From: a virus
Virus record (IMG/VR): IMGVR_UViG_3300031576_000014
Location: 1 to 64,000 of that record
Strand: one strand, 5' to 3'
Length of the DNA stretch: 64,000 nucleotides
Below, piece after piece: positions 12,717 through 35,279 of the stretch; position 1 is the stretch's first letter, and every line of letters starts with the position of its first letter. Under the pieces are notes generated by a model. It had not been told where the DNA came from, did no database searches, and saw only the letters and a list, made by a program, of their open reading frames with translations. A program made the translations under genes and the position numbers.

Positions 12717-15569
12717 CTAGCGCGCCATGATCTTCGCAGCGACCCCGGGCCCCTGCTGCTGGCTCTTCCTCGCCCCTGGAACGAGCATCCCCCACTTGCG
12801 CGCCTGTTGGTGGGCAAAGAAGCAGTTGTGCACCGCGATCCCCTCGACGCAGAAACTTTCGTCCTCCTCGACGTGCAGGTTGTGGACGTCGCCCTCATAG
12901 GCCACGCGCTCCGCGCGGCTCACCTTCGCCAGCACATGACCGTCGTACAGGAACATCGGCGTGTTCGTGCGCCCGCTCTTCCACTCAGGGCGCGACAGGA
13001 TGCTCCCCCAGTGCTCGTGCTCAAGCGCCGTGGCGCGCTCGAGGAACCGAACTGAATCCGTTTGCGTGAGCTTGAGCTTCCATGACTTCTGGATCTGGCA
13101 GATCTTGCCAAAAACGTGCTTCGGACCGCCCTTCTCGTGCGCGCGCATCGACGCGAGGTAGCCGTTCTCCCAGAGCGTGATCCGCGCCTGCTCGAGCCAG
13201 CCACGTGAGATGCTCGCGCCCTCCAAGTTCGCCCGCCCCCGCTGCGAGATGTAGCAGCCGTCGCCCATGAGCCAGCCCCGGACCACGTGCTCGCGAAACT
13301 CCGGAGAGAGGTCCATCCACGCCCACGGCATCTCCTTGCCCGCTCCAGAACCGAATCGCTGAAAGGTGTAGTAGGCGTCCCTGGACCACGCTGTCCAGAC
13401 CACGCACTTGCCACTCCCTCGGTGCGGCGAGCAGTTCGCGTCGAAGTGTTCCCGCATCTTCGCGCGGAAGAACTCACCTAGATGCTCTTCTCGCTCGTGC
13501 AGCGCGACGTTGACCACGTGGCGATCGCCACCTACCGAGCCTTCGGCGATGTAAAGGCCCACCAGCATCGCAACGTCCAGCTCATGCGACTCAACAATCT
13601 TGTTGTTGAAAGAAGGTATCCCCTCTCCATGCTTCTCCTTCGGAACCGTGAACTGAAGCAGGCTCCCTGAAGCGAGCTTTCCAGGGGCGATCTCGACCGC
13701 TGAACGAAACTCCCAGTCTCCCGCACAGATGACCCGATTGCTCCGCGTCTCCGTCTCGATCCTCGCGGAAGAGGACCAAACCGGATGCTCGGACGTGACC
13801 GAAAAGGCCGCGCCTCCTCGCGGCTTGATCCGCAGCACTTCCCCCTCGTGGCGCCGCTTCGTTGTCCCTGTCACCTTCCGCCACCGTCCCTTGTGCGTCA
13901 GGACTCGATCGCCCTGACAGACGTCCTCGATGGAAACGAGCCCGCGCGACGTGGTCACCGGAGTTCCAGGTACGACGCAGGCCATCAAGGTATCGTCTGG
14001 GTGCTTGGTCGGCTCGTAGTAGAGGCAAGCGTTGACCCAGCGCTCGAGCGCCTTCGGCATGCGCCCGTCCGGCGCGTTCGGGAGCAGCCACGCGCCCTGG
14101 TACATCTCGGAGAAGATCAGCGGGACGCCAAACGTCGGGTCCGCCCGCGACGCGTCCGTGCGGTGCCCCCGGACCGGCACGGAAACGTTCTGGCGCCGCG
14201 CCTCGGAGACGACGAACTGCTGCGCCCCGTTGTTCTCGACGACGACGATCGAGCCGTAGCGCCTGTTCTTGTCCGCGATCTTCTTCAAGATGGTCCCGGA
14301 GTCGAACTTGCCGGCGTCGATCTCGAGGATCTGCCGGTGCCCGGAGTCGAGCACCGCGAAGGTGAAGAACGCCGTGTCGTCGGACGCGTCCCTCTGGGAG
14401 AACGCGAGGTCGACCCCCGTGAACGTCGGCTCCGGCCGGTTCTTCCAGCCCGAAACGAACGAGAAGACGCCCCTCTCGCGCGCGTTTCTCTTGCACAGGT
14501 CGACCCACTCCTGCTTGCACATCGCCGTCGCGTCGTCGCGGCAGACGAGAAGGTAGAGCTTGTTGTACTCCGAAGGCGCCGCGACGTACTCGAGCTTCTT
14601 CTCCTCGATGCGCTCGCGCGGGAACTCCTCCGGCCAGAGAGGTGCGCAGTTGTCTTCGTCCGGATCGTGCGCGCGCAGGCGGTAGCATTCCTCGTTCGGG
14701 TCCGGCGTCGCGGGGCGGAGGTCGGGCGACTCCCACTGCTTGCCCGCGACCTGGTCGCTCCAGTCGTCCTGGACCCTGACGTTGCCCTCGACGTCCATGC
14801 GCAGGGTCGCCCAGCCCGGCCCGTCCGGCGGGACCTTCTCGCACGAGTGCAGGAGGTCGTCCTGGTCCCAGGGCGTGTTGCAGAGGACGATGCGCGCGTC
14901 GCGGTAGTCGAGCCGCGAGAGCACGAGCGTGTCGAACCACTCCTTGACCTTGATGCGCTGCTCCCTCGTCTTCGTGTTCGCCCGGTCGAGCAGGTCGTCG
15001 ACGACGATCCAGTTCAGGCGCGCGCCCGCGATCGGGCCGTCCATGCCGTAGGCGCGCATCGTCGGATCCGGGACGCCCGCCGCGCGCCTGACCGTGATCG
15101 CGTCCTCCCTCCATGGGTCGCCTATCCTGTCCGAAGGGGCCAGGTCCGGGAAGACGAGGCGCAGCTCCTGCGAGCTTTCGACCATGTCCCTGACCGTGCG
15201 CACGACCTTCTTCGCCTGGTCGTGGGTCGCGGAGACGATCGCCCCGCGCGTGTTCGGGTTCCTGCCCGTGAGCCAGAGCGAGAGCGCGACCATGCAGGCG
15301 GTCTTCGAGTGCCCCGGCGGGAGGATCAGGACGGCGCGGTCGTGCGCCATCACGAAGTCGAAGATCACCTTCTGGTGCGGCGCGGAGACGACGCGCTGGT
15401 TCGTCTTGTTGTTGCGCATCACGAATGAGAAGAAGGCCGGGAGGTCCTCCCTCGCCTTCTGCGCGACGGATGCGAGCCTCTTCTGCGCCAGCTTGATCGT
15501 CTCCGGATCGTTGCGCAGGCGCTCCCAGGCGGCCGCGTCTGCTGCTGTTTCGCGCGGCGTTTGTTCCAT
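12717..15569 (-). CDS. terL: Terminase large subunit, intein-containing
   Basis: Walker A LPPGHSKT, Walker B IVVDD, coupling motif CNTPW, nuclease motifs TGVDLA, VVENN, HPDDTLMA. Confidence 0.92.
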   Translation of the reverse strand: MEQTPRETAADAAAWERLRNDPETIKLAQKRLASVAQKAREDLPAFFSFVMRNNKTNQRVVSAPHQKVIFDFVMAHDRAVLILPPGHSKTACMVALSLWLTGRNPNTRGAIVSATHDQAKKVVRTVRDMVESSQELRLVFPDLAPSDRIGDPWREDAITVRRAAGVPDPTMRAYGMDGPIAGARLNWIVVDDLLDRANTKTREQRIKVKEWFDTLVLSRLDYRDARIVLCNTPWDQDDLLHSCEKVPPDGPGWATLRMDVEGNVRVQDDWSDQVAGKQWESPDLRPATPDPNEECYRLRAHDPDEDNCAPLWPEEFPRERIEEKKLEYVAAPSEYNKLYLLVCRDDATAMCKQEWVDLCKRNARERGVFSFVSGWKNRPEPTFTGVDLAFSQRDASDDTAFFTFAVLDSGHRQILEIDAGKFDSGTILKKIADKNRRYGSIVVVENNGAQQFVVSEARRQNVSVPVRGHRTDASRADPTFGVPLIFSEMYQGAWLLPNAPDGRMPKALERWVNACLYYEPTKHPDDTLMACVVPGTPVTTSRGLVSIEDVCQGDRVLTHKGRWRKVTGTTKRRHEGEVLRIKPRGGAAFSVTSEHPVWSSSARIETETRSNRVICAGDWEFRSAVEIAPGKLASGSLLQFTVPKEKHGEGIPSFNNKIVESHELDVAMLVGLYIAEGSVGGDRHVVNVALHEREEHLGEFFRAKMREHFDANCSPHRGSGKCVVWTAWSRDAYYTFQRFGSGAGKEMPWAWMDLSPEFREHVVRGWLMGDGCYISQRGRANLEGASISRGWLEQARITLWENGYLASMRAHEKGGPKHVFGKICQIQKSWKLKLTQTDSVRFLERATALEHEHWGSILSRPEWKSGRTNTPMFLYDGHVLAKVSRAERVAYEGDVHNLHVEEDESFCVEGIAVHNCFFAHQQARKWGMLVPGARKSQQQGPGVAAKIMAR
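12825..13979 (-). mobile_element. Intein (385 aa) with LAGLIDADG homing endonuclease in terL
   Basis: Begins CVVPGTPVTT, ends IAVHN before Cys; block B VTSEHPV; LVGLYIAEGS and VRGWLMGDG motifs. Confidence 0.93.
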
Positions 15570-15878
15570 GGGAAGGCGCTTCAGGTTACTCGCGCCCGAA
15601 GACGCACGCCTTGATCTCGTTCGCCAGGGCGACGGCGTGCGCGTTGCACAGCGTGATCGGCGTCCCGTCCCCGCTCGTCTGGTAACGGCGGCCCGGACCC
15701 ACGCACCAGACGCACCATCCCCCGTCGAAAGACTCGACCTTCGGCTTCCCCGCCAGCCGCGCATGCACGTGGCAGTACGGAGAGGCTCCCCGCGCGTTCC
15801 TCGCGCACGGACGGGGGCGCGCAAGCTTGCCGTTCGATCCCCAGCGGACGATCGCCTCGCACTTCACGGTTTCGACTG

Positions 15879-25680: not shown

Positions 25681-26233
25681 CAGATCCTCTCGAACACTGC
25701 CCGGGCGCGCAACTCATCCTGGAGTCTGTTTTTCAAGACCACCTCGACCAGCGGCCCCTGGTCCCGGATACTCCGAAGCCGGACACGTCGAAGAAGGGCA
25801 GTGAACGGCAGCTTGGCCGCCCCTGCGAACAACAAACGGTGAAGGTTGCCGTCGCCGAGAACGCCGAGAACGATGCGCACCTCTACGTCCTCGTCCCGTT
25901 CGAGCGCGCCCATGCGCGCGTCCGCTTCGCCCCCTTCGCCCCCTTCGCCTTCCTCTTGAACATCTCCACCTGCGCGAGGCGCTTCTCCGCCTGCTCCCTG
26001 GTCAGGTCGTCCGCCGAGAGGTTTTTCCCGGCCTCGCTCCGCACCTGGTGGCCGCGCTTCGTCTTGACGATCACGCTTCCCAGCGTAGCGCCTCAGCTCC
26101 GCGCGCAGAAGGTCGCACTCGCGATCCTTGTCCGCGAGCATCGCGCCGTAGAGCGCGATGAGGTGGAAGACCGCGTTGTGCACGGCCGGCGCCTTCAGGT
26201 TCGGCCCGAGCGCCGCCGCGACCTGCTCGGGCG

Positions 26234-26845
26234 TCAGCACGCGCTCTCCGCCTCGATCGCCGCCCGGTTCGCCTGGAGGACCGCGAGGACGAGCAGCGCG
26301 GCCGTGCGCGGCGCCACCTCCGCCTGACGGCCCGTCTCGAGGAGGGCTGCCACGACCTTGGCGATCTTCTCGACCGCGAGCTTCGCCAGCCAGACCTCCT
26401 TCGCCTCCATCTCGACGAAGACCGCGGGCGAGCGCGCGTCGAGAGCGTGGCCCGTCGCGAGAAGAAGCACCGGCCCGGGGACGGCCACGCCGTTCACGGT
26501 CGAGACCCACTGCTCCTCGACCCCGTCGAAGAACTTCTCGACCGGCCCCATCGCCATCGTCGGCGCGTGGAACACCCAAGCCTTGCGCTTCTCCAGGTCG
26601 CGGCCCCATACGATCGGGTCCGGAGCCGGAGCGTCGGGCAGACCGTCGTTGTCCTCGTCCTTCAGAAGCCTCTCCGTCGCCTCGATCGACGGCGTTGGTG
26701 CTGGGACGCTCGGGTCAGCGGGGACGCAGCCTTCGTGGATGCATCCTGGCCCGCACGCGCAACCCTCGACGGTGCACGCCATCACGCCTCCCCGCCGCTC
26801 GTGCAGGAGGCTGCTGTGGCCGCAAACGCACGCGGCGCTGCTCAT
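26234..26845 (-). CDS. Hypothetical protein, Cys-rich N-terminus
   Basis: CVCGH...C...CAC; ATGA overlap. Confidence 0.6.
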   Translation of the reverse strand: MSSAACVCGHSSLLHERRGGVMACTVEGCACGPGCIHEGCVPADPSVPAPTPSIEATERLLKDEDNDGLPDAPAPDPIVWGRDLEKRKAWVFHAPTMAMGPVEKFFDGVEEQWVSTVNGVAVPGPVLLLATGHALDARSPAVFVEMEAKEVWLAKLAVEKIAKVVAALLETGRQAEVAPRTAALLVLAVLQANRAAIEAESAC

Positions 26846-27258
26846 GCCCTTCTCCTCGCGATCCTGTTGATGAACGCCATGTGATCCTCCGCGTCCCTTG
26901 CCGCGTCGCGCACGCCCTCGACCGGGACGTCGACCTCGCCCGAGAGCATGATCCCGGGCTGCCACTTCCAGTCCGGATCGAGGTGGTTCGCGACCACGTC
27001 CGGCGGAACCTTGCCGGCGAAGAAGTCCGCCGTCCGCTCGACGTGCTCGTAGCCCCTCTGGTAGCCCGCCTGGTAGCAGATCCTCCCGTGCTCCTGCGAG
27101 AGCCTCACCCAGTCCGCGCGCGTCGCCTTCGGGTACGCGTTCGCGAAGGCGACCACGACCTCCGAGAGCCTCTTCGGGAGCTGCGGACCCTCCTCGAACG
27201 TGCCGAAGAGCTTCTCTTTGACCCTGCGCAGCCACCTGACGACGGGCGTCTCGCTCAT
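26842..27258 (-). CDS. Hypothetical protein
   Basis: ATGA overlap with the UDG-like gene. Confidence 0.65.
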   Translation of the reverse strand: MSETPVVRWLRRVKEKLFGTFEEGPQLPKRLSEVVVAFANAYPKATRADWVRLSQEHGRICYQAGYQRGYEHVERTADFFAGKVPPDVVANHLDPDWKWQPGIMLSGEVDVPVEGVRDAARDAEDHMAFINRIARRRA

Positions 27259-27731
27259 GCGAAGACTTCCCTGAGGAACTTCTCCGCGCGCGCCCGGTTG
27301 CCGACGTCGTTCCACCAGCGGTTGACGCCCGACGGATGCGGGACGACCACCGCGTCCACCCAGCGCCCGCCTTTCCAAATCACGAACCACCGGAAGTACT
27401 CGGCTCTCCTGGGCGGGCACGCACCCACGCTGAACGTCGCCCCGTCCATGAACGCGCGGTAGACGTTCTTCCCAAGAAGGACGACCACCCTGGCCTTCCC
27501 GAACCGCATCAGGCGCGCCGCCCTGGAAGCGTCTCCCCTCGGAAAGCAGTCGCCCTTGCCGTTCTTGCCGTGATAGCGGCCGAGGAGGTTCACGCACCGC
27601 GCGCTGCCGCGCAGATCCCCGACGCCGGCGATCTGCTCGAGCCTCCGCCCGGAGCGTCCGTCGAGGACCCTGCGCCTCCCCGCCCTCCGCGAGGGAGCCT
27701 GCCCGACTACGAGGATCTTCGGGCGATCCAT
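27255..27731 (-). CDS. Uracil-DNA glycosylase superfamily protein
   Basis: ILVVGQAPS, GRSGRRL, VVLLGK, PHPSGVNRWWN. Confidence 0.8.
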   Translation of the reverse strand: MDRPKILVVGQAPSRRAGRRRVLDGRSGRRLEQIAGVGDLRGSARCVNLLGRYHGKNGKGDCFPRGDASRAARLMRFGKARVVVLLGKNVYRAFMDGATFSVGACPPRRAEYFRWFVIWKGGRWVDAVVVPHPSGVNRWWNDVGNRARAEKFLREVFA

Positions 27732-28441
27732 GCGGCGAAGCCCAGGCTCCTCCAGAAGCAGTCGACGTCGTCGAAGCCGCTCGCGCGCAGCATCTCCTCG
27801 TTCCAGCGCGCCGTCAGGGGCACCAGCACGCCCTCGAGCGAGAGCTTCTTCCTCGCGATCTGGTCGTCCGTGTACCCCGCGACGCGCTTCCTGTCCTCGT
27901 GCGCGGCCACGAGCAGCGCATCGATCGCCGCGCTCGCCCCGATGACCTTCTCGACGAGGATCAACGCTCCTCCGCCCTCCGTATGCTCCCAGACGTCGCG
28001 CAGGATCCGCAGGCGATGCTCGAGCGGCGTGAACTGGAGCGTGAGCACGCACATCGTCAGCGCGGCGGAGGATCGGATCGGGTAGCCCGCCCGCACGAGA
28101 TCGTGCCGGAATATCTGCACATGCTGCTCCTTCGCGAAGCGGGAGCACGCTGCCTCGATCATCGGCTCCGAGACGTCGACGCCGTAGAACTCGTCCCAGC
28201 CGGCGGACGCGGCCACCAGATCAGCGATGGCGTCCCCGCGCGAGCAGCCGAGGTCGACCACCTTGTGCACGACCCTGACCTTGTGGCGCAGCCCGAGCAC
28301 GTGGGAGGCGACCTCGTGCACGAGCTTCCTCATCAGCGCGTAGTCCGGGATCGAGCGCTCGAGCATGTCCGGGAAGGAGTCGGCCACGCTCTGGTCGAAC
28401 TTCCAGCGCCCCTCCGGCATCGTCTCGTCCTTGACCGTCAT
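27707..28441 (-). CDS. cmoA: CmoA-like carboxy-S-adenosylmethionine synthase
   Basis: WKFDQSVADSFPDMLERSIPDY, VDLGCSRG, LTLQF, LILVEK, KKLSLEGVL, GF..VDCFWRSLGF match CmoA along its length. Confidence 0.85.
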   Translation of the reverse strand: MTVKDETMPEGRWKFDQSVADSFPDMLERSIPDYALMRKLVHEVASHVLGLRHKVRVVHKVVDLGCSRGDAIADLVAASAGWDEFYGVDVSEPMIEAACSRFAKEQHVQIFRHDLVRAGYPIRSSAALTMCVLTLQFTPLEHRLRILRDVWEHTEGGGALILVEKVIGASAAIDALLVAAHEDRKRVAGYTDDQIARKKLSLEGVLVPLTARWNEEMLRASGFDDVDCFWRSLGFAAWIARRSS

Positions 28442-29817
28442 CGCCGTTTCTTTGCCGCCAGCAGCCCGTCCCGGACCACGGCGGCCACGGCCCGCATCAT
28501 GAGGGGAGGAACCGCCCTCCCGCACCTCTCCCACATCTGCTGGTACGTGCCCGTGAGCACGAAGTCGTCCGGGAACGAGCAGATGCGCTTCAGCTCCGCG
28601 ATCGTGAACTTCCGCGGCTCCGTCGGGTGCGTCGGGCCCGCTGCTCCAGCGTTTCCTCCCTTTGCCGTGATCGCCGGCGAAGACTCGTTCGTGCCCCCCC
28701 TGACCAGGTTTAGATACTTCTCTGACTTTCCACCCTCCGCCAGCCGATGCCACTCCGGACCGATCACGAAGCGCTCGATATTCGACGCGTCCTCTTCCTC
28801 GACTTGGAACTGGAACGGCGCGCACCCGATCGTGTCCCCGCCGAGCACGGTCGGACACGGATCATCAAGCGGGATCTCCTTCCCCTTCATGTCGAAGGGC
28901 GCCTTGTTGCCGTGCCGCACGCGCACCTGCGACGCAAACCCAGTCCCCATCCCGGCCGCGGACACTGTCGGCGCCGGTTCGTCAGACGACAACATCCTCT
29001 CGCGTGCCGGCGCTCCTCCCGGCCTATACCGGGTCGTAATCTGCGGACCCTCTGATGGTTCGTCGTCGACCGCCATGATCTGGGAGAAAGTTCTGGGTCT
29101 ATTATGCGTCATCACCGTCGGCGCCGGTTCGTTGCTTCGTTCTCCTTTCTTGGTGACAACCCGCAGGGACTCGAAAACGTCGCGCAGCGTGTAGAAATAC
29201 GGGAGCGGCGTCGGGTGCGCGGGCTCGATGTCGAGATCCTCGCGGAAGCCGACGAAGAACAAGCGCTGCCGCGACTGCGGAACGCCGAGCCACTTCGCAT
29301 CGAGAACACGCGCAGCGACTCGGTAGCCGGACTCCTTCAGCTCCTTCAAGATCTCAAGGAAGTAGCCCTTCGCGACGCCCTTCACGAGCCCTGAGACGTT
29401 CTCCGCGACGAACGCGCGCGGCTTCAACCCTCGAAGGATCCGCACGAACTCGAAGAAGAGATCGTCCGTCCTCTGGCGAGTGTCGCTGTACGCCTTGACC
29501 GCTCCCCAGTCGCGCTCGCGCTTGCCGCTCGTTGAAAAAGCCGCGCATGGGGGTGACCCGTCAAGCACGTCCAGCTCGCCGATCTTCATCCCGGTCTGCG
29601 CAAGGATCTCCTTCGGCTCGACCTTCCTGACGTCCCTGTCGTCGACCGGCGTCCCGGGGAAGTTCGCCGCGTACGTTTCTCGCGCTGCCTTGACGAACTC
29701 GCTCGCCCAAACGACGTGCATGCCGGCCATCGCGTAGCCGAGCGAGGAGCCGCCCCCTCCAGAGAAGAGGCTAACGACCTTGAGCCCGTTGCGCGGGACT
29801 GCGCGGACCTCGGCCAT
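28438..29817 (-). CDS. DNA cytosine-C5 methyltransferase family enzyme, predicted carboxymethyltransferase
   Basis: Motif I LFSGGGG, IV GSPPC, VI ENV, VIII QSRQR; motif X reads GRAVPP instead of GNAV. Confidence 0.9.
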   Translation of the reverse strand: MAEVRAVPRNGLKVVSLFSGGGGSSLGYAMAGMHVVWASEFVKAARETYAANFPGTPVDDRDVRKVEPKEILAQTGMKIGELDVLDGSPPCAAFSTSGKRERDWGAVKAYSDTRQRTDDLFFEFVRILRGLKPRAFVAENVSGLVKGVAKGYFLEILKELKESGYRVAARVLDAKWLGVPQSRQRLFFVGFREDLDIEPAHPTPLPYFYTLRDVFESLRVVTKKGERSNEPAPTVMTHNRPRTFSQIMAVDDEPSEGPQITTRYRPGGAPARERMLSSDEPAPTVSAAGMGTGFASQVRVRHGNKAPFDMKGKEIPLDDPCPTVLGGDTIGCAPFQFQVEEEDASNIERFVIGPEWHRLAEGGKSEKYLNLVRGGTNESSPAITAKGGNAGAAGPTHPTEPRKFTIAELKRICSFPDDFVLTGTYQQMWERCGRAVPPLMMRAVAAVVRDGLLAAKKRR

Positions 29818-30088
29818 CGACGGCAACCGGTACGAGGGCTTCGACGGCGCGGATGGACTCGTCCCGGCACCGGGCGACGAGCGCGGCGTAGACGTTCCTG
29901 ACAGGGCCCTCGACGACGCGCGACGCAAGCTGCTCCTCCCTCTTCGGATCGTACACCGGCAGCCCGGACTCCGCCTTCGCCCGCGCGGCCTCCAGGCTCA
30001 GCTCGAGCCGACGCTTGAGCAGGAAGAGGATCCGGATGTCGAGGTTGTCGATGTCGTGGCGGACCTGCTCGAGCGCGCGCGTGTTCAT
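29771..30088 (-). CDS. Chorismate mutase (AroQ, type II)
   Basis: LEQVRHDIDNLDIRILFLLKRRLELSLEAARAKAESGLPVYDPKRE has the AroQ R..ID..D, R, K and D..RE residues. Confidence 0.88.
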   Translation of the reverse strand: MNTRALEQVRHDIDNLDIRILFLLKRRLELSLEAARAKAESGLPVYDPKREEQLASRVVEGPVRNVYAALVARCRDESIRAVEALVPVAVDGRGPRSPAQRAQGR

Positions 30089-30705
30089 CCCGCGCCCTTT
30101 GCCGCCCTCCCGTTCTTGCCGCCGCCGCGAAGCTCCGTCTTGCCCCCGCTCCATTTGTAGCCGCACTTCGGGCAGCGGAAGTCGACCTGGATGTTCTCGT
30201 TGAACATCGGGAAGCTCTCTGGCGGCTGCACTACCAGCCGGTCAACGTCGCCCCCCGCGAAGCCTGTCCCGTAGAGGTCGCCGGCGGTCGCCCTTTCACG
30301 GAGAAGGACGAGCAGGATCGTGTTGTCGTAGCCCGCCCGGTCGCTCGTCCGGTTGTCCGCAAGCATGATCCGCATCGCCGTCGCATCGTCGACGTCGACG
30401 AAGATCGCCGGAACGCGCTTTAGCCCTTTGACGCTCGCGCTCTTCCAGCGATGGTTGCCGACGAGGATCAGGTTGGTCGACTTCTGAACAAGGCACGCGC
30501 CGTAGAAGCCGTTCGCCTCGACGGACTCGTCGATCAGCCCCTGCGCACCACGGCGGGGGTTGCGCGGGTGAGGGGCTATCGAGCCCGTGGGCACGACGCG
30601 GTAGCGCTGCTTGACGATCTCCGCCGCGACTGCCGCCGACGCGTCGTTCGAGGGCGCCGCCGGCGAGGTCACGGCCTCCGGGGCAGCCTCTTTCGCTCTC
30701 CGCAT
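30085..30705 (-). CDS. ParB-like N-terminal domain protein with C-terminal Zn ribbon
   Basis: PHPRNPR, ILVGNHR, LADNRT, CPKCGYKW. Confidence 0.8.
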   Translation of the reverse strand: MRRAKEAAPEAVTSPAAPSNDASAAVAAEIVKQRYRVVPTGSIAPHPRNPRRGAQGLIDESVEANGFYGACLVQKSTNLILVGNHRWKSASVKGLKRVPAIFVDVDDATAMRIMLADNRTSDRAGYDNTILLVLLRERATAGDLYGTGFAGGDVDRLVVQPPESFPMFNENIQVDFRCPKCGYKWSGGKTELRGGGKNGRAAKGAG

Positions 30706-31286
30706 CCCGCGCTCGCCTCCTGCCTGGCAGCATCCCCCTGCGCGTTCCAACCTTCAAGCGTCATCGACGGCATCCCGAGACGCGCGCGCCCTGCGTTCGC
30801 GACGGCGAACGCGTCGACCTGGTCCGCCGTCCACTTCTCCCCAGGCTGGGGGAAAGCTGCGAAGAACGCGCGCTGCACCGCCTCCCCGGACCTCTCGTGG
30901 GGCACTTTTCCGAGCAGCGCCTTGCGGATCGTCGGGATCGCGATCGGCCGCGCGACGATGCCCTTCTCCCGGTAGAGCGCCAGCTTGATGCACCCGGTCA
31001 GCTCCGCCACGCCGCGCGCGTGCGCGAGCGCGGAACCGAAGCTGTAGTCCTCGACGAAGACGACGACGTCCGACGAGATCAGGCCCACGACCGCGCGCGA
31101 GATCTCGCCCAGGCGCACGCAGCGGTCCTCCAGCGTGTGCTCCTTCGGAAGCGCGTGCGCGCAAGAAAAGACGGACACTTCCTCGATACTCTTCGCGTCC
31201 CAGCTGCAAAGGACGAGCGCCGCCGCCGTCCCCCGGAGCGACACGTCGAGCCCCCAAACATCGACGGTGGCTCGGCGACGCGTCAC
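30669..31286 (-). CDS. RuvC-like Holliday junction resolvase
   Basis: VWGLDVSLRGT, VFVEDY, DQVDAFAVA. Confidence 0.75.
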   Translation of the reverse strand: MTRRRATVDVWGLDVSLRGTAAALVLCSWDAKSIEEVSVFSCAHALPKEHTLEDRCVRLGEISRAVVGLISSDVVVFVEDYSFGSALAHARGVAELTGCIKLALYREKGIVARPIAIPTIRKALLGKVPHERSGEAVQRAFFAAFPQPGEKWTADQVDAFAVANAGRARLGMPSMTLEGWNAQGDAARQEASAGCGERKRLPRRP

Positions 31287-33178
31287 GCGACCACCTCCGC
31301 GCGCGACCAACCGCCCTCGCTCACGATCTCGATCCGCCCGGGCAAGCCGTGCATGGTCTGGGGATCGTGCGAGACGACGAACGCCTGCTCGACCCCGCCG
31401 CGGAGCACGAGCGCGCCGAGGTGCCGCGCAAACGCCCGCCGTTTCGACGTGTCGAGCGACCCGAACGGCTCGTCGAGGACGACGACGCCCCACGGGCTCC
31501 CGCGCTCCCCGCGCAGCCAGCCCCCCGCCGCGAGCCCGACCGCTGCGCCGGCGAGGTCGTCCGCCCCGCCAGAGTCGTGCGACCTGTTGAACTCGAGCTT
31601 CGCCACGATGTTCGGACCCCTGCCCGCACCGCAGCGCGTGCAAACCTTCGCCGTCCTCGACGACGGGAACAGCATGCCGCACCCGTCGCACGCGTGCGCC
31701 AGCCCTTGGCCCTCGCGCGACCAGCGGACGTCGACGCGCAGGTCGATCCCTGCCTCCGCCAGCCCCGCGTTCGCATCCTCCTCGATCTCCGCCAGCGCGT
31801 CTTCCGCAATCTTCCTCTGCGCACCGTTGCGCCCGAAGACCACCGCGGCCTCTCTCATGATCTCCGCGAAAGGCCGCGACACCTCGATCTCCTTCTCGAT
31901 CTCCGCGATCCTTCTCCTGGTCTCCGCTGCGCGCGAGACCGCCACCGCAGCCTCTGCGACCGCGCTCGTGGCCGCCCGCACCTGCTCGTACGCCTCGTCG
32001 TGCGCCCGCCGCAGCGCTGCCGCGTCCCCGGCCTCCGGAACGTTCCTCGCCGCCTCGGCGGCCGGCAGCATCCCCGCGATCTGCCCCCTCAGCGCATCGC
32101 CCTTGGCCTGCTGCCGCTCCGCCGCCTGGGTCTGCGCCTGCGCGCGCCCGTGCGCGGCCAGCGCCTTCTCGTGGACCGCCTTCGCCTCCTCGTAGGCATG
32201 CTGGAAGCGCTCCGCCTCCGTCCGGCACCTTTCCCTGTTCTCCTCGATGAACGCCCGCGCCGGGCACGGCGCCGAGACGACGGGACAAAGGCCGGCGAAG
32301 TCGCCGCCCGCGATCCCGCGGAAATGGTCGCGTCTCTTCATGTGGGCGCGCATCGCTTCCCCCGTCTCGTTCGCCTCCCTCCACCGGTCCTTCGCGTCCG
32401 CCGGCGCCTTCGCCTGCACATGCTTCGCCAGCTCCTCGGACAACCGCACGAACTCCACGCGCACGTGCCGCGCCTTCTCCCGTGCCCCGTTCTCCTCAAG
32501 GTCCGCCGCAGCGTCCGACAGCTTCGCCCGGGCATGCTTCTCGCTGACCTTGGCCGCCTCGTGGGTCTTCAGAAGGGCCCCCTGGTCCCCGTCCTGGCTC
32601 CGCAGCACCTTCAGGAGCGCCTCCTTCTCCGCCGTCCCGTCCGTCGACGCTGCGAGCTTCGCGCGCGCGATCTCCGCGCAGCGCTCGACGGGCGCGAGCG
32701 ACAGCCAAGAGACGACCACCTGCGTCCGGACCTCCGGCCGCGCGACGACGAGCTGCGAGAGCTTTTTTTGCTCGAAGAAGCTCGCCGTCATGAAGTCCTC
32801 CGACGAAAGCCCGACGAGGTCGTGGATCTTCTTCTGGGCCTCGTCCTTCCAGAGAACGCGCCCGCCGTCGTGGAGGGAAAGCTTCGTCGGCTTCCCCCGC
32901 TCGCGCGAGCGGCTCAGCACCTCGCCCGTGCTCAGAAGAACGACGACGCGGCCGTGGGCCTGCCCGTTCGAGATGAGCCCGTCCTCCGTCCGGTGCCGGT
33001 GCCAGCCGTCGAACGCGAAGCGGAGAGCCTCGAGCAGGTGCGTCTTGCCGAGCCAGTTCGAACACTCCGGATCGTCCACGCTCCTCGCGACGACGCCGTG
33101 CGCGCGCGCTCCTAGCCGGAGACGGTGCTCGCCGCGGAACGGACCCCAGTTCTCGACGAGCAGCTCGCGGACGTGCAT
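31283..33178 (-). CDS. SbcC/Rad50-like ATPase
   Basis: ENWGPF, NWLGKT, coiled coil with CP...CP hook, SGG, LDEPFGSLD, VVSH. Confidence 0.88.
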   Translation of the reverse strand: MHVRELLVENWGPFRGEHRLRLGARAHGVVARSVDDPECSNWLGKTHLLEALRFAFDGWHRHRTEDGLISNGQAHGRVVVLLSTGEVLSRSRERGKPTKLSLHDGGRVLWKDEAQKKIHDLVGLSSEDFMTASFFEQKKLSQLVVARPEVRTQVVVSWLSLAPVERCAEIARAKLAASTDGTAEKEALLKVLRSQDGDQGALLKTHEAAKVSEKHARAKLSDAAADLEENGAREKARHVRVEFVRLSEELAKHVQAKAPADAKDRWREANETGEAMRAHMKRRDHFRGIAGGDFAGLCPVVSAPCPARAFIEENRERCRTEAERFQHAYEEAKAVHEKALAAHGRAQAQTQAAERQQAKGDALRGQIAGMLPAAEAARNVPEAGDAAALRRAHDEAYEQVRAATSAVAEAAVAVSRAAETRRRIAEIEKEIEVSRPFAEIMREAAVVFGRNGAQRKIAEDALAEIEEDANAGLAEAGIDLRVDVRWSREGQGLAHACDGCGMLFPSSRTAKVCTRCGAGRGPNIVAKLEFNRSHDSGGADDLAGAAVGLAAGGWLRGERGSPWGVVVLDEPFGSLDTSKRRAFARHLGALVLRGGVEQAFVVSHDPQTMHGLPGRIEIVSEGGWSRAEVVA

Positions 33179-33588
33179 CAGAGACCGGCCTCGTCCATGA
33201 TCGCCTCGCACGCCTCGCGCAGCGCCTTCTTGTCCTCGAACGAGCACGCCTCGACGACCTCGAGCACGACGTCCCGCGCCCTTGCCCGCTTCTTCCGGAC
33301 GCGCGCGAGCGCCTCGTCGGGAAGCCTCGCCCGCCTCCGGCGCAGAACCCGTATCTCCCCCTCCGCGCCCATCTTCCGGGCCCACGCCCGCACGGCCTCG
33401 ACCTGCTCGTCCGCGACGTCCGGGGGCGCGCGCACACGCACGAGCGCGCCCGCCGTCATCTGGTCGAACGCCATGTCTCCGTCCCAGACCGGACTGTCCT
33501 CGCCGATCGTCACGAGCCGCCTCGTCTCGACAGGGAAGAACTCCGTCTTCGGGACGAGCCGGATCGCGGGGTTTCTCCGGCGCGTCAA
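33178..33588 (-). CDS. Hypothetical protein, possibly detached SbcD C-terminal domain
   Basis: Lies between sbcD-like and sbcC-like genes; ALVRVR motif. Confidence 0.55.
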   Translation of the reverse strand: MTRRRNPAIRLVPKTEFFPVETRRLVTIGEDSPVWDGDMAFDQMTAGALVRVRAPPDVADEQVEAVRAWARKMGAEGEIRVLRRRRARLPDEALARVRKKRARARDVVLEVVEACSFEDKKALREACEAIMDEAGL

Positions 33589-34304
33589 GCGACCTCGGAG
33601 ACGATGAAGCCCGGATCGTTCCCTTCCTCCGCGAACGTCAACCGCACGAGGGAGCCCGGGATCTCGATTCCGTCCGGCGTCGTCTGCCGGCGGTGGTAGT
33701 GCCCGTTGATCATGAGACGCGCCTTGCCGCGAAGCTGCTCGACGGGAAAGAGCACCTCCCGCCCGCGGGGCATCTCCGCCGTCTCCTCCCCCGGGATCAC
33801 GCCCGGGACGTGCAGGTGTCCTAAGACGACCAGCGGCAGCTCAGAGCTTTCCTTCACCGCGGCCGCCGCCGCCGCCGCCGGATCGTAGGCGCAGGACCGC
33901 GCGGTGTACGGAAGCGTCAAGAACCTGGTGCTCCTCCAGACGAAGCTCTCCGCCTTCTCGAAAACCCCCGTCAGCCCTGCGCACGAGCCCAGCGAGCAGA
34001 GCGGCTCGAGCGTGGTCCTTCCCCGCCCGTCCTCGATCACGTCGTGGTTGCCCGCCACCCAGAACGACATGATGCCCCGGGACCGAAGCTCGCGCGCGGC
34101 GTCGAGCGCGAGCGCGACGCACCGGAAGACCGAGGACCCGGAGTCCGGGTCGCAGAGGTCGCCCGTCATCGCGTAGAGGTCGACCTTCCTGTCGACCGCC
34201 TCCTTGACCGTCTGCTCGACGGCGCGCGCGACGTCGTCGAAGCGGTCGACGCCCCGCGTGCTCCAGTCGGCGTGCCAATCGCTACAGGTCAGGATGCGGA
34301 GCAC
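33585..34304 (-). CDS. SbcD/Mre11-like metallophosphoesterase
   Basis: SDWH, GDLCD, GNHD, GHYH, PGSL. Confidence 0.88.
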   Translation of the reverse strand: MLRILTCSDWHADWSTRGVDRFDDVARAVEQTVKEAVDRKVDLYAMTGDLCDPDSGSSVFRCVALALDAARELRSRGIMSFWVAGNHDVIEDGRGRTTLEPLCSLGSCAGLTGVFEKAESFVWRSTRFLTLPYTARSCAYDPAAAAAAAVKESSELPLVVLGHLHVPGVIPGEETAEMPRGREVLFPVEQLRGKARLMINGHYHRRQTTPDGIEIPGSLVRLTFAEEGNDPGFIVSEVA

Positions 34305-34649
34305 GCGTTCCCCGGCTTCATGGTCTCATCCCGTGCCGCCCGAGCAGCTCGAGCAGCAGGAGCCTGTCCGTCGAGTTCCACGCGTTGCGGCGCAGCGACT
34401 CGACGGCGTGGCGCGGCGGCGTCTGCACGCGATCCCAATCGTCCAGCGTGAACCCCGGGGCCCGCGCGTACACCCTGACCGGCCCGTCCTGCTCGTCCCT
34501 GCGAACAGCGGTCAAAAGGTCGCCGCTCGACCGTTCCGAGAACACCTCGTAACGGAACCTCCGGTGGCCGCGCAACGCCTGGAAACTGTCGGGCCACTCG
34601 CGCCACCACGGCGAAACGGCCAACAGCCTGCAACCCTCGAACGCGCGGG

Positions 34650-35279
34650 TCACGCCTCGCACTCCGCCTGCACCAGCGGCAGCCGCGTCCAGGTCCCCGC
34701 CTTCGCGTCCGGGCCCCAGAAATACCAGGAGTAGGCCGTCGCGTCGTGCTTCCCGTCACCCGTGAACGACGGCCGCTTGTCGAGCATGCCCAGCTCCGGC
34801 GGATGCTTGGCGAGGAACCGGGCCCTCTCCTGGATGCGCGGGTACTTCGACCACGGGCAGGATTCCATCCAGCCCGTGCGGCAGAGCATCGCCACCGTCT
34901 TGGCGATCTCCATCGCCCGCGCGGCGAACTCGCGCGCAAGCTCGAACGGCGGGTTGAAGATCGCGTAGTCGTAGGAGCCCGCGAGGCGTGCGCGGTCGAG
35001 GACGTCGCCCCGGAGAACGTGCCAGTCCCCGTTGATGCTCTGCATCTTCTTCTCCGCCGCGTCGGCCAACCTGGGTTGAAGTTCGACCCCTGTGATGATC
35101 GCCGACGGGACGAAGCGGAGAACCTCCGCCATGACGGCGCCCCCTCCGCAACCGAGATCGATCATCCTTGGCCCGTTGTCCCGCATGTCGAGGCGTCCGA
35201 GCGCCGCGCGCGTGCACCAGCCCGGCGTCGCGTAATGCCCGCCCTTCCTGCTCCTCTCCCCCCTGCCCCTCGCGCTCAT
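34650..35279 (-). CDS. DNA amino-methyltransferase (N6A-type)
   Basis: YATP, IDLGCGGG, NPPF, RPSF..DG..D...Y.W. Confidence 0.85.
   Translation of the reverse strand: MSARGRGERSRKGGHYATPGWCTRAALGRLDMRDNGPRMIDLGCGGGAVMAEVLRFVPSAIITGVELQPRLADAAEKKMQSINGDWHVLRGDVLDRARLAGSYDYAIFNPPFELAREFAARAMEIAKTVAMLCRTGWMESCPWSKYPRIQERARFLAKHPPELGMLDKRPSFTGDGKHDATAYSWYFWGPDAKAGTWTRLPLVQAECEA

Follow-up and report, generated by a model that had tools for sequence, protein, structure and literature searches.

A minus-strand operon of five overlapping genes in an uncultured phage genome places a small AroQ-class chorismate mutase (CM) between a ParB-like gene and the genes for a CmoX-type DNA cytosine C5-methyltransferase homologue and a CmoA-type synthase of carboxy-S-adenosylmethionine (Cx-SAM), and we propose that the three enzymes would together lead from chorismate to carboxymethylated DNA. 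The operon lies at 27255-30750 of the window, by which we mean the first 64 kb of the 94,582-bp IMG/VR record IMGVR_UViG_3300031576_000014 (CheckV completeness 100%). In the proposed route the mutase would turn host chorismate into prephenate, CmoA would make Cx-SAM from prephenate and S-adenosylmethionine (SAM), and CmoX, whose motif X has an Arg instead of the usual Asn, would move the carboxymethyl group to C5 of cytosine in the phage DNA to give 5-carboxymethylcytosine (5cxmC). The modified base would likely protect the phage DNA against host restriction, and the mutase would enlarge the prephenate pool without being subject to host feedback, so as to serve a genome-wide demand. The same route had been put forward in a first-pass annotation of this DNA, and it agrees with every computational test available: the C5-methyltransferase carries both published hallmarks of CmoX, it is the only one in the genome, and CmoB is missing. 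We put the probability of the whole route at roughly two in three.

The features of the operon, all on the minus strand, are as follows.

30085-30750, minus strand: ParB N-terminal-domain protein, operon gene 1 (Pfam ParB_N, E = 6e-7; PHROG ParB-like families, E down to 8e-29)
29771-30088, minus strand: small AroQ-class chorismate mutase, 105 amino acids (P0003; Pfam CM_2), the proposed supplier of prephenate for CmoA
28438-29928, minus strand: CmoX-type DNA cytosine C5-carboxymethyltransferase (putative), 496 amino acids from the probable TTG at 29928 (P0002 is the 459-residue product from ATG 29817)
29545-29556, minus strand: SPPC motif of CmoX with the catalytic Cys (Cys91 counted from ATG 29817); 29548-29559 translates as GSPP, followed by the Cys
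28516-28518, minus strand: Arg434 codon in motif X of CmoX (GRAVPP), the equivalent of SpCmoX Arg350, aligned with the GR of SpCmoX
27707-28441, minus strand: CmoA-type carboxy-SAM synthase (putative), 244 amino acids (P0001; TIGR00740 over its full length)
27845-27847, minus strand: Lys199 codon of CmoA at the E. coli Arg199 position, from alignment and translation (RKKLSLE)
27255-27731, minus strand: small UDG-superfamily protein, 158 amino acids, last gene of the operon (Pfam UDG, PF03167, E = 2e-9)

Profile searches returned the three gene families that had been named from the letters alone, with the CM_2, DNA_methylase and CmoA models all matched, and codon-position GC is coding-like in the three genes (GC3 0.82-0.94, GC2 0.43-0.48; 0.85 at the third position for the CM gene). 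An ATGA at 30085-30088 joins the ParB_N stop to the CM start, the ATGA overlap previously noted at 28438-28441 is present and joins the CmoX stop to the CmoA start, and the UDG-superfamily gene overlaps the 3' end of CmoA by 25 nucleotides. The first-pass annotation had described a three-gene unit. The three overlapping genes exist, but the unit has five, with ParB_N upstream and the UDG-superfamily gene downstream, each overlapping its neighbour. Judged from these junctions, 27255-30750 is one translationally coupled operon of overlapping genes encoding ParB_N, CM, CmoX, CmoA and the UDG-fold protein. A consensus scan found no promoter-like sites in 26000-35000, and terminator-like sites were not above those of shuffled sequence.

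CmoX and CmoA

Read from 28438 to 29817, the C5-methyltransferase gene matched the Pfam DNA_methylase family (PF00145) at E = 2e-58. Its best relative among all solved structures was SpCmoX of Synechococcus phage S-B43 (8YF3, E = 6.8e-66), and ordinary C5-methyltransferases, including M.HaeIII (8.5e-28) and HhaI, matched at 1e-27 to 1e-22. SpCmoX makes 5cxmC and accepts only Cx-SAM (Yang et al., Nat Commun 2025, PMC12783734). Its Arg350 replaces the motif X Asn of M.HhaI (N304) and contacts the carboxymethyl group; the R350N variant is dead and accepts neither cofactor, and the authors searched for CmoX proteins by the SPPC motif together with R350 (PMC12783734). Both are present in the window protein, which shares 45% identity with SpCmoX in the catalytic domain: GSPPC occupies residues 87-91 of P0002, and Arg434 lies in an ERCGRAVPP segment that aligns with GRMVPP of SpCmoX, where ordinary C5-methyltransferases show GN. 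The Arg is shared at this position by 75 of the 79 closest IMG/VR relatives of CmoX. By these two published criteria, the only C5-methyltransferase gene of the whole genome is supported as encoding a CmoX-type cytosine carboxymethyltransferase. The chemistry of CmoA and CmoX has been established for relatives (PMC12783734), and we infer that these particular proteins would be active in the same way. The variable region of the window CmoX comprises approximately 170 residues (~196-368) that have no counterpart in SpCmoX, and because it is far longer than the SpCmoX region the target sequence cannot be inferred.

While the gene and its family stood as first annotated, the start did not: CmoX probably begins at TTG 29928 rather than at ATG 29817, which gives a protein of 496 amino acids. 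A GGAGG lies 6 nucleotides upstream of this TTG, which is in the frame of the methyltransferase, and the relatives keep a KPPY-x-x-P-x-M-x-E-I...PWNG motif whose first half precedes ATG 29817; the window frame reads KPSYRLPS-MAEV. With the TTG start, CM and CmoX would overlap by 158 nucleotides rather than 47. The stretch 29771-29928 would then be read in two frames, one encoding helix 3 and the tail of CM and the other a Ser/Pro/Thr-rich N-terminal extension of CmoX that ends in the KPSY motif. The metagenome contig L167 repeats this CM/CmoX overlap pattern. The CmoX relatives of loci L168-L246 share an N-terminal KPPY-x-(V/I)-P-(S/T)-M-x-E-I-x-x-(I/V)-P-W-N-G immediately ahead of motif I; the N-terminus of SpCmoX differs.

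The CmoA-like protein aligned over its full length with TIGR00740 (E = 3.5e-34, 118.5 bits) and end to end with the solved CmoA/YecO structures 1IM8 (E = 9e-25) and 4GEK (E = 9e-22), and it matched PHROG 4752 at E = 3e-58. The NCBI trusted cut-off for TIGR00740, 193.3, excludes true phage CmoAs, because the experimentally active SpCmoA, at 115.6 bits, also falls under it. The first-pass annotation had cautioned that the Arg of E. coli KRSMLE is a Lys in the KKLSLE of this protein. The substitution is confirmed, and we do not regard it as disqualifying. Arg199 of E. coli CmoA contacts the Cx-SAM carboxylate. Of the 120 closest relatives, 106 carry Arg in column 199 and 14 carry Lys, and a BLASTP alignment gives D-K-E-K-E-L-R here for the active SpCmoA, with Glu at position 199, a flanking Lys on both sides and no Arg. 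From these alignments, Lys199 is a recurrent conservative variant that gives no sign of a dead enzyme, and Arg199 is not strictly defining.

A search of the phage genome for CmoB gave no match, and natural fusions of 610-758 amino acids join a C5-methyltransferase domain of the CmoX type to a CmoA domain (P0276, P0278 and P0281). Since the phage lacks CmoB and such fusions exist, CmoX is the evident consumer of Cx-SAM. Phage-type CmoA relatives (44-54% identical) are also found in GTDB on contigs of metagenome-assembled genomes (MAGs) from many phyla, including Chloroflexota, Verrucomicrobiota, Actinomycetota, Planctomycetota, Acidobacteriota and Bacteroidota. A close CmoX relative was detectable nearby in only 13 of the 80 GTDB CmoA loci (L085-L164), so other Cx-SAM acceptors are likely.

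The chorismate mutase

The CM protein scored 55.7 bits against Pfam CM_2 (PF01817; E = 6e-15), where the gathering cut-off is 27, and matched solved AroQ mutases from Pyrococcus, Thermus, actinobacteria and E. coli at E = 4e-8 to 1e-3. That the reading frame is an artefact of a high-GC genome was rejected on the Pfam score, the GC3 pattern and the relatives, which keep even the C-terminal tail. An exhaustive search of 1.84 billion representatives returned 654 relatives at E <=0.001, only seven of them at E <=1e-10. The closest are 40-55% identical and 77-105 amino acids long, with a short loop between helix 2 and helix 3 and a GPVR..Y..V..CR signature. When the 20 closest relatives were aligned, R10, R27, K38, R50 and E51 were invariant and D47 nearly so; in 1ECM numbering we take R10/R27/K38/D47/R50/E51 to be R11/R28/K39/D48/R51/E52 of the E. 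coli enzyme. The same set is kept in most of the nine CmoA-linked CMs, the copies from two Bacteroidales loci (L161 and L164) having Tyr at E51 and no Asp at D47.

The subfamily conserves Cys74-Arg75 in helix 3. Matches to Pfam and to PDB entries end at approximately residue 73, and the register of helix 3 is not fixable by sequence. Short intracellular AroQ mutases of actinobacteria are weak until a partner activates them; for the mycobacterial enzyme this partner is DAHP synthase. The window CM resembles these short actinobacterial mutases in helix 3, and on sequence grounds its activity is likely and the level of that activity uncertain. Past the AroQ domain the protein continues into a C-terminal tail (A-V-D-G-R-D/G-P...), encoded at 29771-29830 in the window and present also in P0126, P0127 and P0129-P0132; such relatives are rare, each of their clusters holding 1-3 sequences. 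Since several relatives carry a similar tail, it is genuine coding sequence, and its DGRDP-rich stretch may be a docking element.

It is improbable, in our judgement, that this AroQ-fold protein is no working mutase and instead catalyses a related pericyclic reaction (e.g. that of an isochorismate-pyruvate lyase) or docks on CmoA/CmoX as a non-catalytic or partner-dependent subunit. Such a protein might be expected to look as this one does in several respects: no evident counterparts of E. coli Ser84 and Gln88 are present, a GPVR...Y...CR signature and a conserved DGRDP-like tail set the subfamily apart, every chorismate mutase equivalog model of NCBIfam has a cut-off above the score reached here, and the mycobacterial enzymes offer a precedent for weakness without a partner. 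However, the equivalents of R11/R28/K39/D48/R51/E52 are invariant in the CmoA-linked CMs apart from the two Bacteroidales copies (Tyr at the E52 position), the Pfam gathering score is exceeded, and no metabolite other than prephenate accounts for a link to CmoA.

Linkage of the mutase to CmoX and CmoA

We collected 239 loci (2.64 Mb), comprising 80 from IMG/VR and 80 from GTDB chosen by CmoA similarity and 79 further IMG/VR loci chosen by CmoX similarity; one extra metagenome contig, L167, was found with the CM subfamily alignment as query. Whole records of the first IMG/VR set were scanned with Pfam CM_2, and all sets were scanned with a hidden Markov model (HMM) built from the short members (<=135 amino acids) of 150 CM relatives. 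A CM is present in seven of the 239 CmoA/CmoX loci and in L167, eight in all, and in six of these eight it is the immediate same-strand neighbour of CmoX or CmoA. A lack of linkage between the mutase and the pair in related phages had been named beforehand as something that would refute the route; the six contigs show the link.

Two gene orders recur. The order ParB-CM-CmoX-CmoA is shared by the window, L176 and L240. Contig L167 encodes a ParB (E = 1e-47 to that of the window), then a CM 45% identical to the window CM, then the N-terminus of a CmoX at the contig end, with the CM tail overlapping the CmoX N-terminus (KPPYRVPSMAEVGRIPSNG...SLFSGGGG). The order ParB-CmoX-...-CmoA-CM is found in L004, L005 and L183, where the CM starts 3-21 nucleotides past the end of the CmoA match; L004 is a complete 59.7-kb phage with terminal repeats. 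In the Bacteroidales MAG loci L161 and L164, a canonical CM lies approximately 6 kb upstream of CmoA. The CmoA-linked CMs are only 17-45% identical and come from contigs of 46% to 74% GC, and no further CM was found in the flanks of the loci scanned. By a rough estimate, the chance of direct same-strand placement against the pair in most of the CM-bearing loci is far below 1e-4. We rejected chance adjacency, as six contigs, with two gene orders among them, place CMs this divergent right beside CmoX or CmoA in the same orientation. Judged from this placement, CM is functionally linked to CmoA/CmoX; the linkage is either old or has arisen repeatedly, and it is rare, being seen in ~3% of the clusters sampled.

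A tblastn search of CM against 50,697 cultured-phage records gave no match, single-protein locus searches of IMG/VR with CM and with CmoA returned no result, and the CM-subfamily alignment found nothing in IMG/VR. Fusions of CM to CmoA were likewise not seen: the 18 long CM relatives lack CmoA, and the long CmoA relatives lack CM_2 and are fused to CmoX instead.

Viral chorismate mutases have been interpreted as auxiliary genes of amino-acid synthesis (PMC10465536), and the CM could accordingly be an unrelated auxiliary metabolic gene that boosts host Phe/Tyr synthesis and lies by chance beside a CmoA-CmoX pair that makes 5cxmC, an arrangement with which its absence from most CmoA/CmoX clusters would agree. 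We hold this to be slightly less probable than a protein without mutase activity. Placement by chance is hard to square with six independent contigs in which highly divergent CMs adjoin one member of the pair, in the same orientation and in either of two orders, with a CM embedded between ParB and CmoX in overlapping reading frames, with the lack of any CM elsewhere in the 2.64 Mb of flanks, and with the lack of a prephenate dehydratase or dehydrogenase adjoining the CM gene. Finally, although CmoA belongs classically to tRNA modification, SAM depletion has been raised as a possibility (PMC12783734) and the variable region at ~196-368 has no SpCmoX counterpart, it is very unlikely that the methyltransferase writes ordinary 5-methylcytosine from SAM and that the Cx-SAM serves host tRNA cmo5U or SAM depletion, given a motif X Arg instead of Asn, the published exclusive use of Cx-SAM by SpCmoX and of neither cofactor by R350N, the lack of a phage CmoB, the CmoX/CmoA ATGA overlap and the existence of CmoX-CmoA fusions.

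Several points weigh against the proposed route from chorismate to 5cxmC. Approximately 97% of the sampled CmoA/CmoX clusters have no CM, and an HMM search found CM_2 absent from five cultured CmoA phages (TurkishDelight, Afa-NA1, Yoloswag, PaBG and a Staphylococcus SPbeta-like phage); with most clusters lacking the mutase, the host prephenate pool is usually sufficient. Clear equivalents of the helix 3 residues Ser84 and Gln88 are not evident in CM, so that its activity could be weak or partner-dependent. Position 199 of CmoA is Lys instead of Arg, and the protein scores under the NCBI trusted cut-off. Lastly, host metabolism offers no argument for the route.

Neighbouring genes and relation to known systems

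The 79 closest CmoX loci contain CmoA in 76 cases, a ParB relative in 68, a CmoY-like ligase of the asparagine-synthetase type in 40, a UDG-like gene in six and a CM in three; ParBc proteins have been reported as frequent neighbours of CmoX (PMC12783734). The window phage appears to lack the ligase. The earlier statement that no amide-ligase-like gene is visible holds for the whole 94.6-kb genome, in which neither Asn_synthase nor three CmoY-type queries found a match, so the modification probably stops at 5cxmC, barring an extending enzyme that has gone unrecognised. Locus L183 has a CM together with CmoY and a UDG-like gene.

No solved relative of the UDG-like protein was found by sequence, and it is placed by fold search only: a model with a mean pLDDT of 70 gave Foldseek matches to UdgX and family 4 UDGs (E ~1e-5, TM ~0.6). 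Its conserved motifs are VGQAPS and HPSGxN (HPSGxNxWWN). UDG-like relatives directly adjoin CmoA or CmoX in 13 other viral loci, including L009, L015, L016, L054, L056, L172-L174, L183 and L244, and in P0118 (381 amino acids) a UDG-like domain is fused to the N-terminus of CmoA. The gene that follows CmoA in phage PaBG is not a relative. The words 'glycosylase' and 'UDG' are both absent from the text of PMC12783734.

A more ambitious reading would treat all five genes as a self-sufficient module in charge of writing, supply and proofreading, with CM physically coupled to CmoA/CmoX and the UDG-fold protein acting as a new glycosylase or reader. The coupling would pass labile prephenate straight to CmoA, with the CM tail as a possible docking peptide, and the UDG-fold protein would act on carboxymethylated or deaminated pyrimidines and so keep the modified genome clean. 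The idea of physical coupling draws on the dual-frame overlap of the CM gene with the CmoX N-terminus and on the conserved DGRDP-like tail of the subfamily. We regard this extension as unlikely, if slightly less so than the alternatives discussed above.

Around the operon lie genes of replication and recombination, namely a dTMP kinase, a RuvC-like resolvase and SbcCD-like genes. The window has a GC content of approximately 67%, and nearly all of its coding-like frames are on the minus strand. The genome encodes a large terminase, a family B DNA polymerase, helicases, a primase and a baseplate wedge protein, which together mark a tailed phage; the source is an uncultured tailed phage of a high-GC host. 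The phage is without a near relative in culture, and its DNA polymerase gave no lead to the host: the sole cultured match is to a Halorubrum virus (27% identity), and the CmoA relatives occur in MAGs of many phyla. The large terminase gene (12717-15824, minus strand) encodes 1035 amino acids, far above the usual length. Its terminase match is restricted to residues 96-547, and residues 615-684 give a separate match to PHROG 36001, a family of unknown function. The excess length fits an inserted element such as an intein.

The closest described system is CmoA-CmoX-CmoY of Synechococcus phage S-B43, in which a Cx-SAM synthase adjoins a C5-methyltransferase homologue with SPPC and the motif X Arg, and ParB neighbours are frequent. 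The expected product is the same in both phages, 5cxmC in phage DNA. In contrast to S-B43, the window phage has no CmoY, and no glycine amide step is expected; it adds the CM and the UDG-fold gene, neither of which is mentioned in PMC12783734. The gene order differs as well (CmoA-CmoY-CmoX in S-B43, ParB-CM-CmoX-CmoA-UDG in the window). Identity to the S-B43 counterparts is 27% for CmoA and 45% for the catalytic domain of CmoX, whose variable region is much larger in the window.

A cultured likeness, close in size to the present genome, is Streptomyces phage TurkishDelight (NC_073473, L165; 93.6 kb), whose gp121-125 include two ParB proteins, a CmoX-like methyltransferase (50% identical) and a CmoA-like methyltransferase. 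Unlike the window, TurkishDelight has a gene of the glutamine-amidotransferase/asparagine-synthetase type between the two methyltransferases and no CM_2 in its whole genome. Its cluster, at 89.5-93.5 kb, is annotated only as methyltransferases and is a candidate laboratory model for an amidated modification. The E. coli CmoA/CmoB pathway to tRNA cmo5U34 shares the conversion of prephenate and SAM to Cx-SAM. There, however, the acceptor is tRNA ho5U and the transfer is by CmoB, whereas the phage lacks CmoB and has a DNA C5-methyltransferase homologue instead.

The AroQ mutases of known structure, which include EcCM of PheA (1ECM), the monofunctional archaeal and thermophile enzymes 1YBZ and 2D8D and the actinobacterial intracellular enzymes 5MPV and 2QBV, are like the window CM small all-helical CM_2 proteins with the same Arg/Lys/Glu set in helices 1 and 2. 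The window CM differs in being encoded by a phage within a DNA-modification operon, in its short loop between helices 2 and 3, and in having Cys-Arg in helix 3 and a DGR-rich tail rather than the Ser84/Gln88 pattern. It is also neither fused to nor adjoined by an enzyme of aromatic amino-acid synthesis; a prephenate dehydratase or dehydrogenase partner in particular does not adjoin it.

The CmoA-CmoX(-CmoY) pathway, its diagnostic Arg and the association with ParB were published in December 2025 (PMC12783734), which bears out the statement in the first-pass annotation that phages pair CmoA with a C5-methyltransferase. The further impression that no dedicated mutase had been reported also holds, as 'chorismate' occurs nowhere in that paper, and full-text searches of one literature collection found no paper linking a phage chorismate mutase to CmoA or Cx-SAM. 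By sequence comparison, then, the core is a known system, and the dedicated supply of prephenate, possibly with a UDG-fold partner, is an unpublished recurrent accessory. In a study of the rumen virome, viral genes for chorismate mutase, asparagine synthase and DNMT are entered as auxiliary genes of amino-acid metabolism, nitrogen metabolism and defence (PMC10465536); genes annotated under these three names may instead be parts of one DNA-modification pathway.

A route that starts from chorismate and SAM and reaches modified DNA with three enzymes would be useful for producing Cx-SAM and 5cxmC DNA in vivo, and would suit hosts that lack CmoA or keep tight feedback control over aromatic synthesis. 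The UDG-fold partner would be a further, so far unstudied, component of the pathway. The availability of prephenate across hosts has been named as needing investigation (PMC12783734), and the CM described here would provide a testable answer to that question rather than a new principle. That several unrelated phage lineages have a presumably unregulated CM built into the CmoX-CmoA operon suggests that prephenate can be limiting in some hosts.

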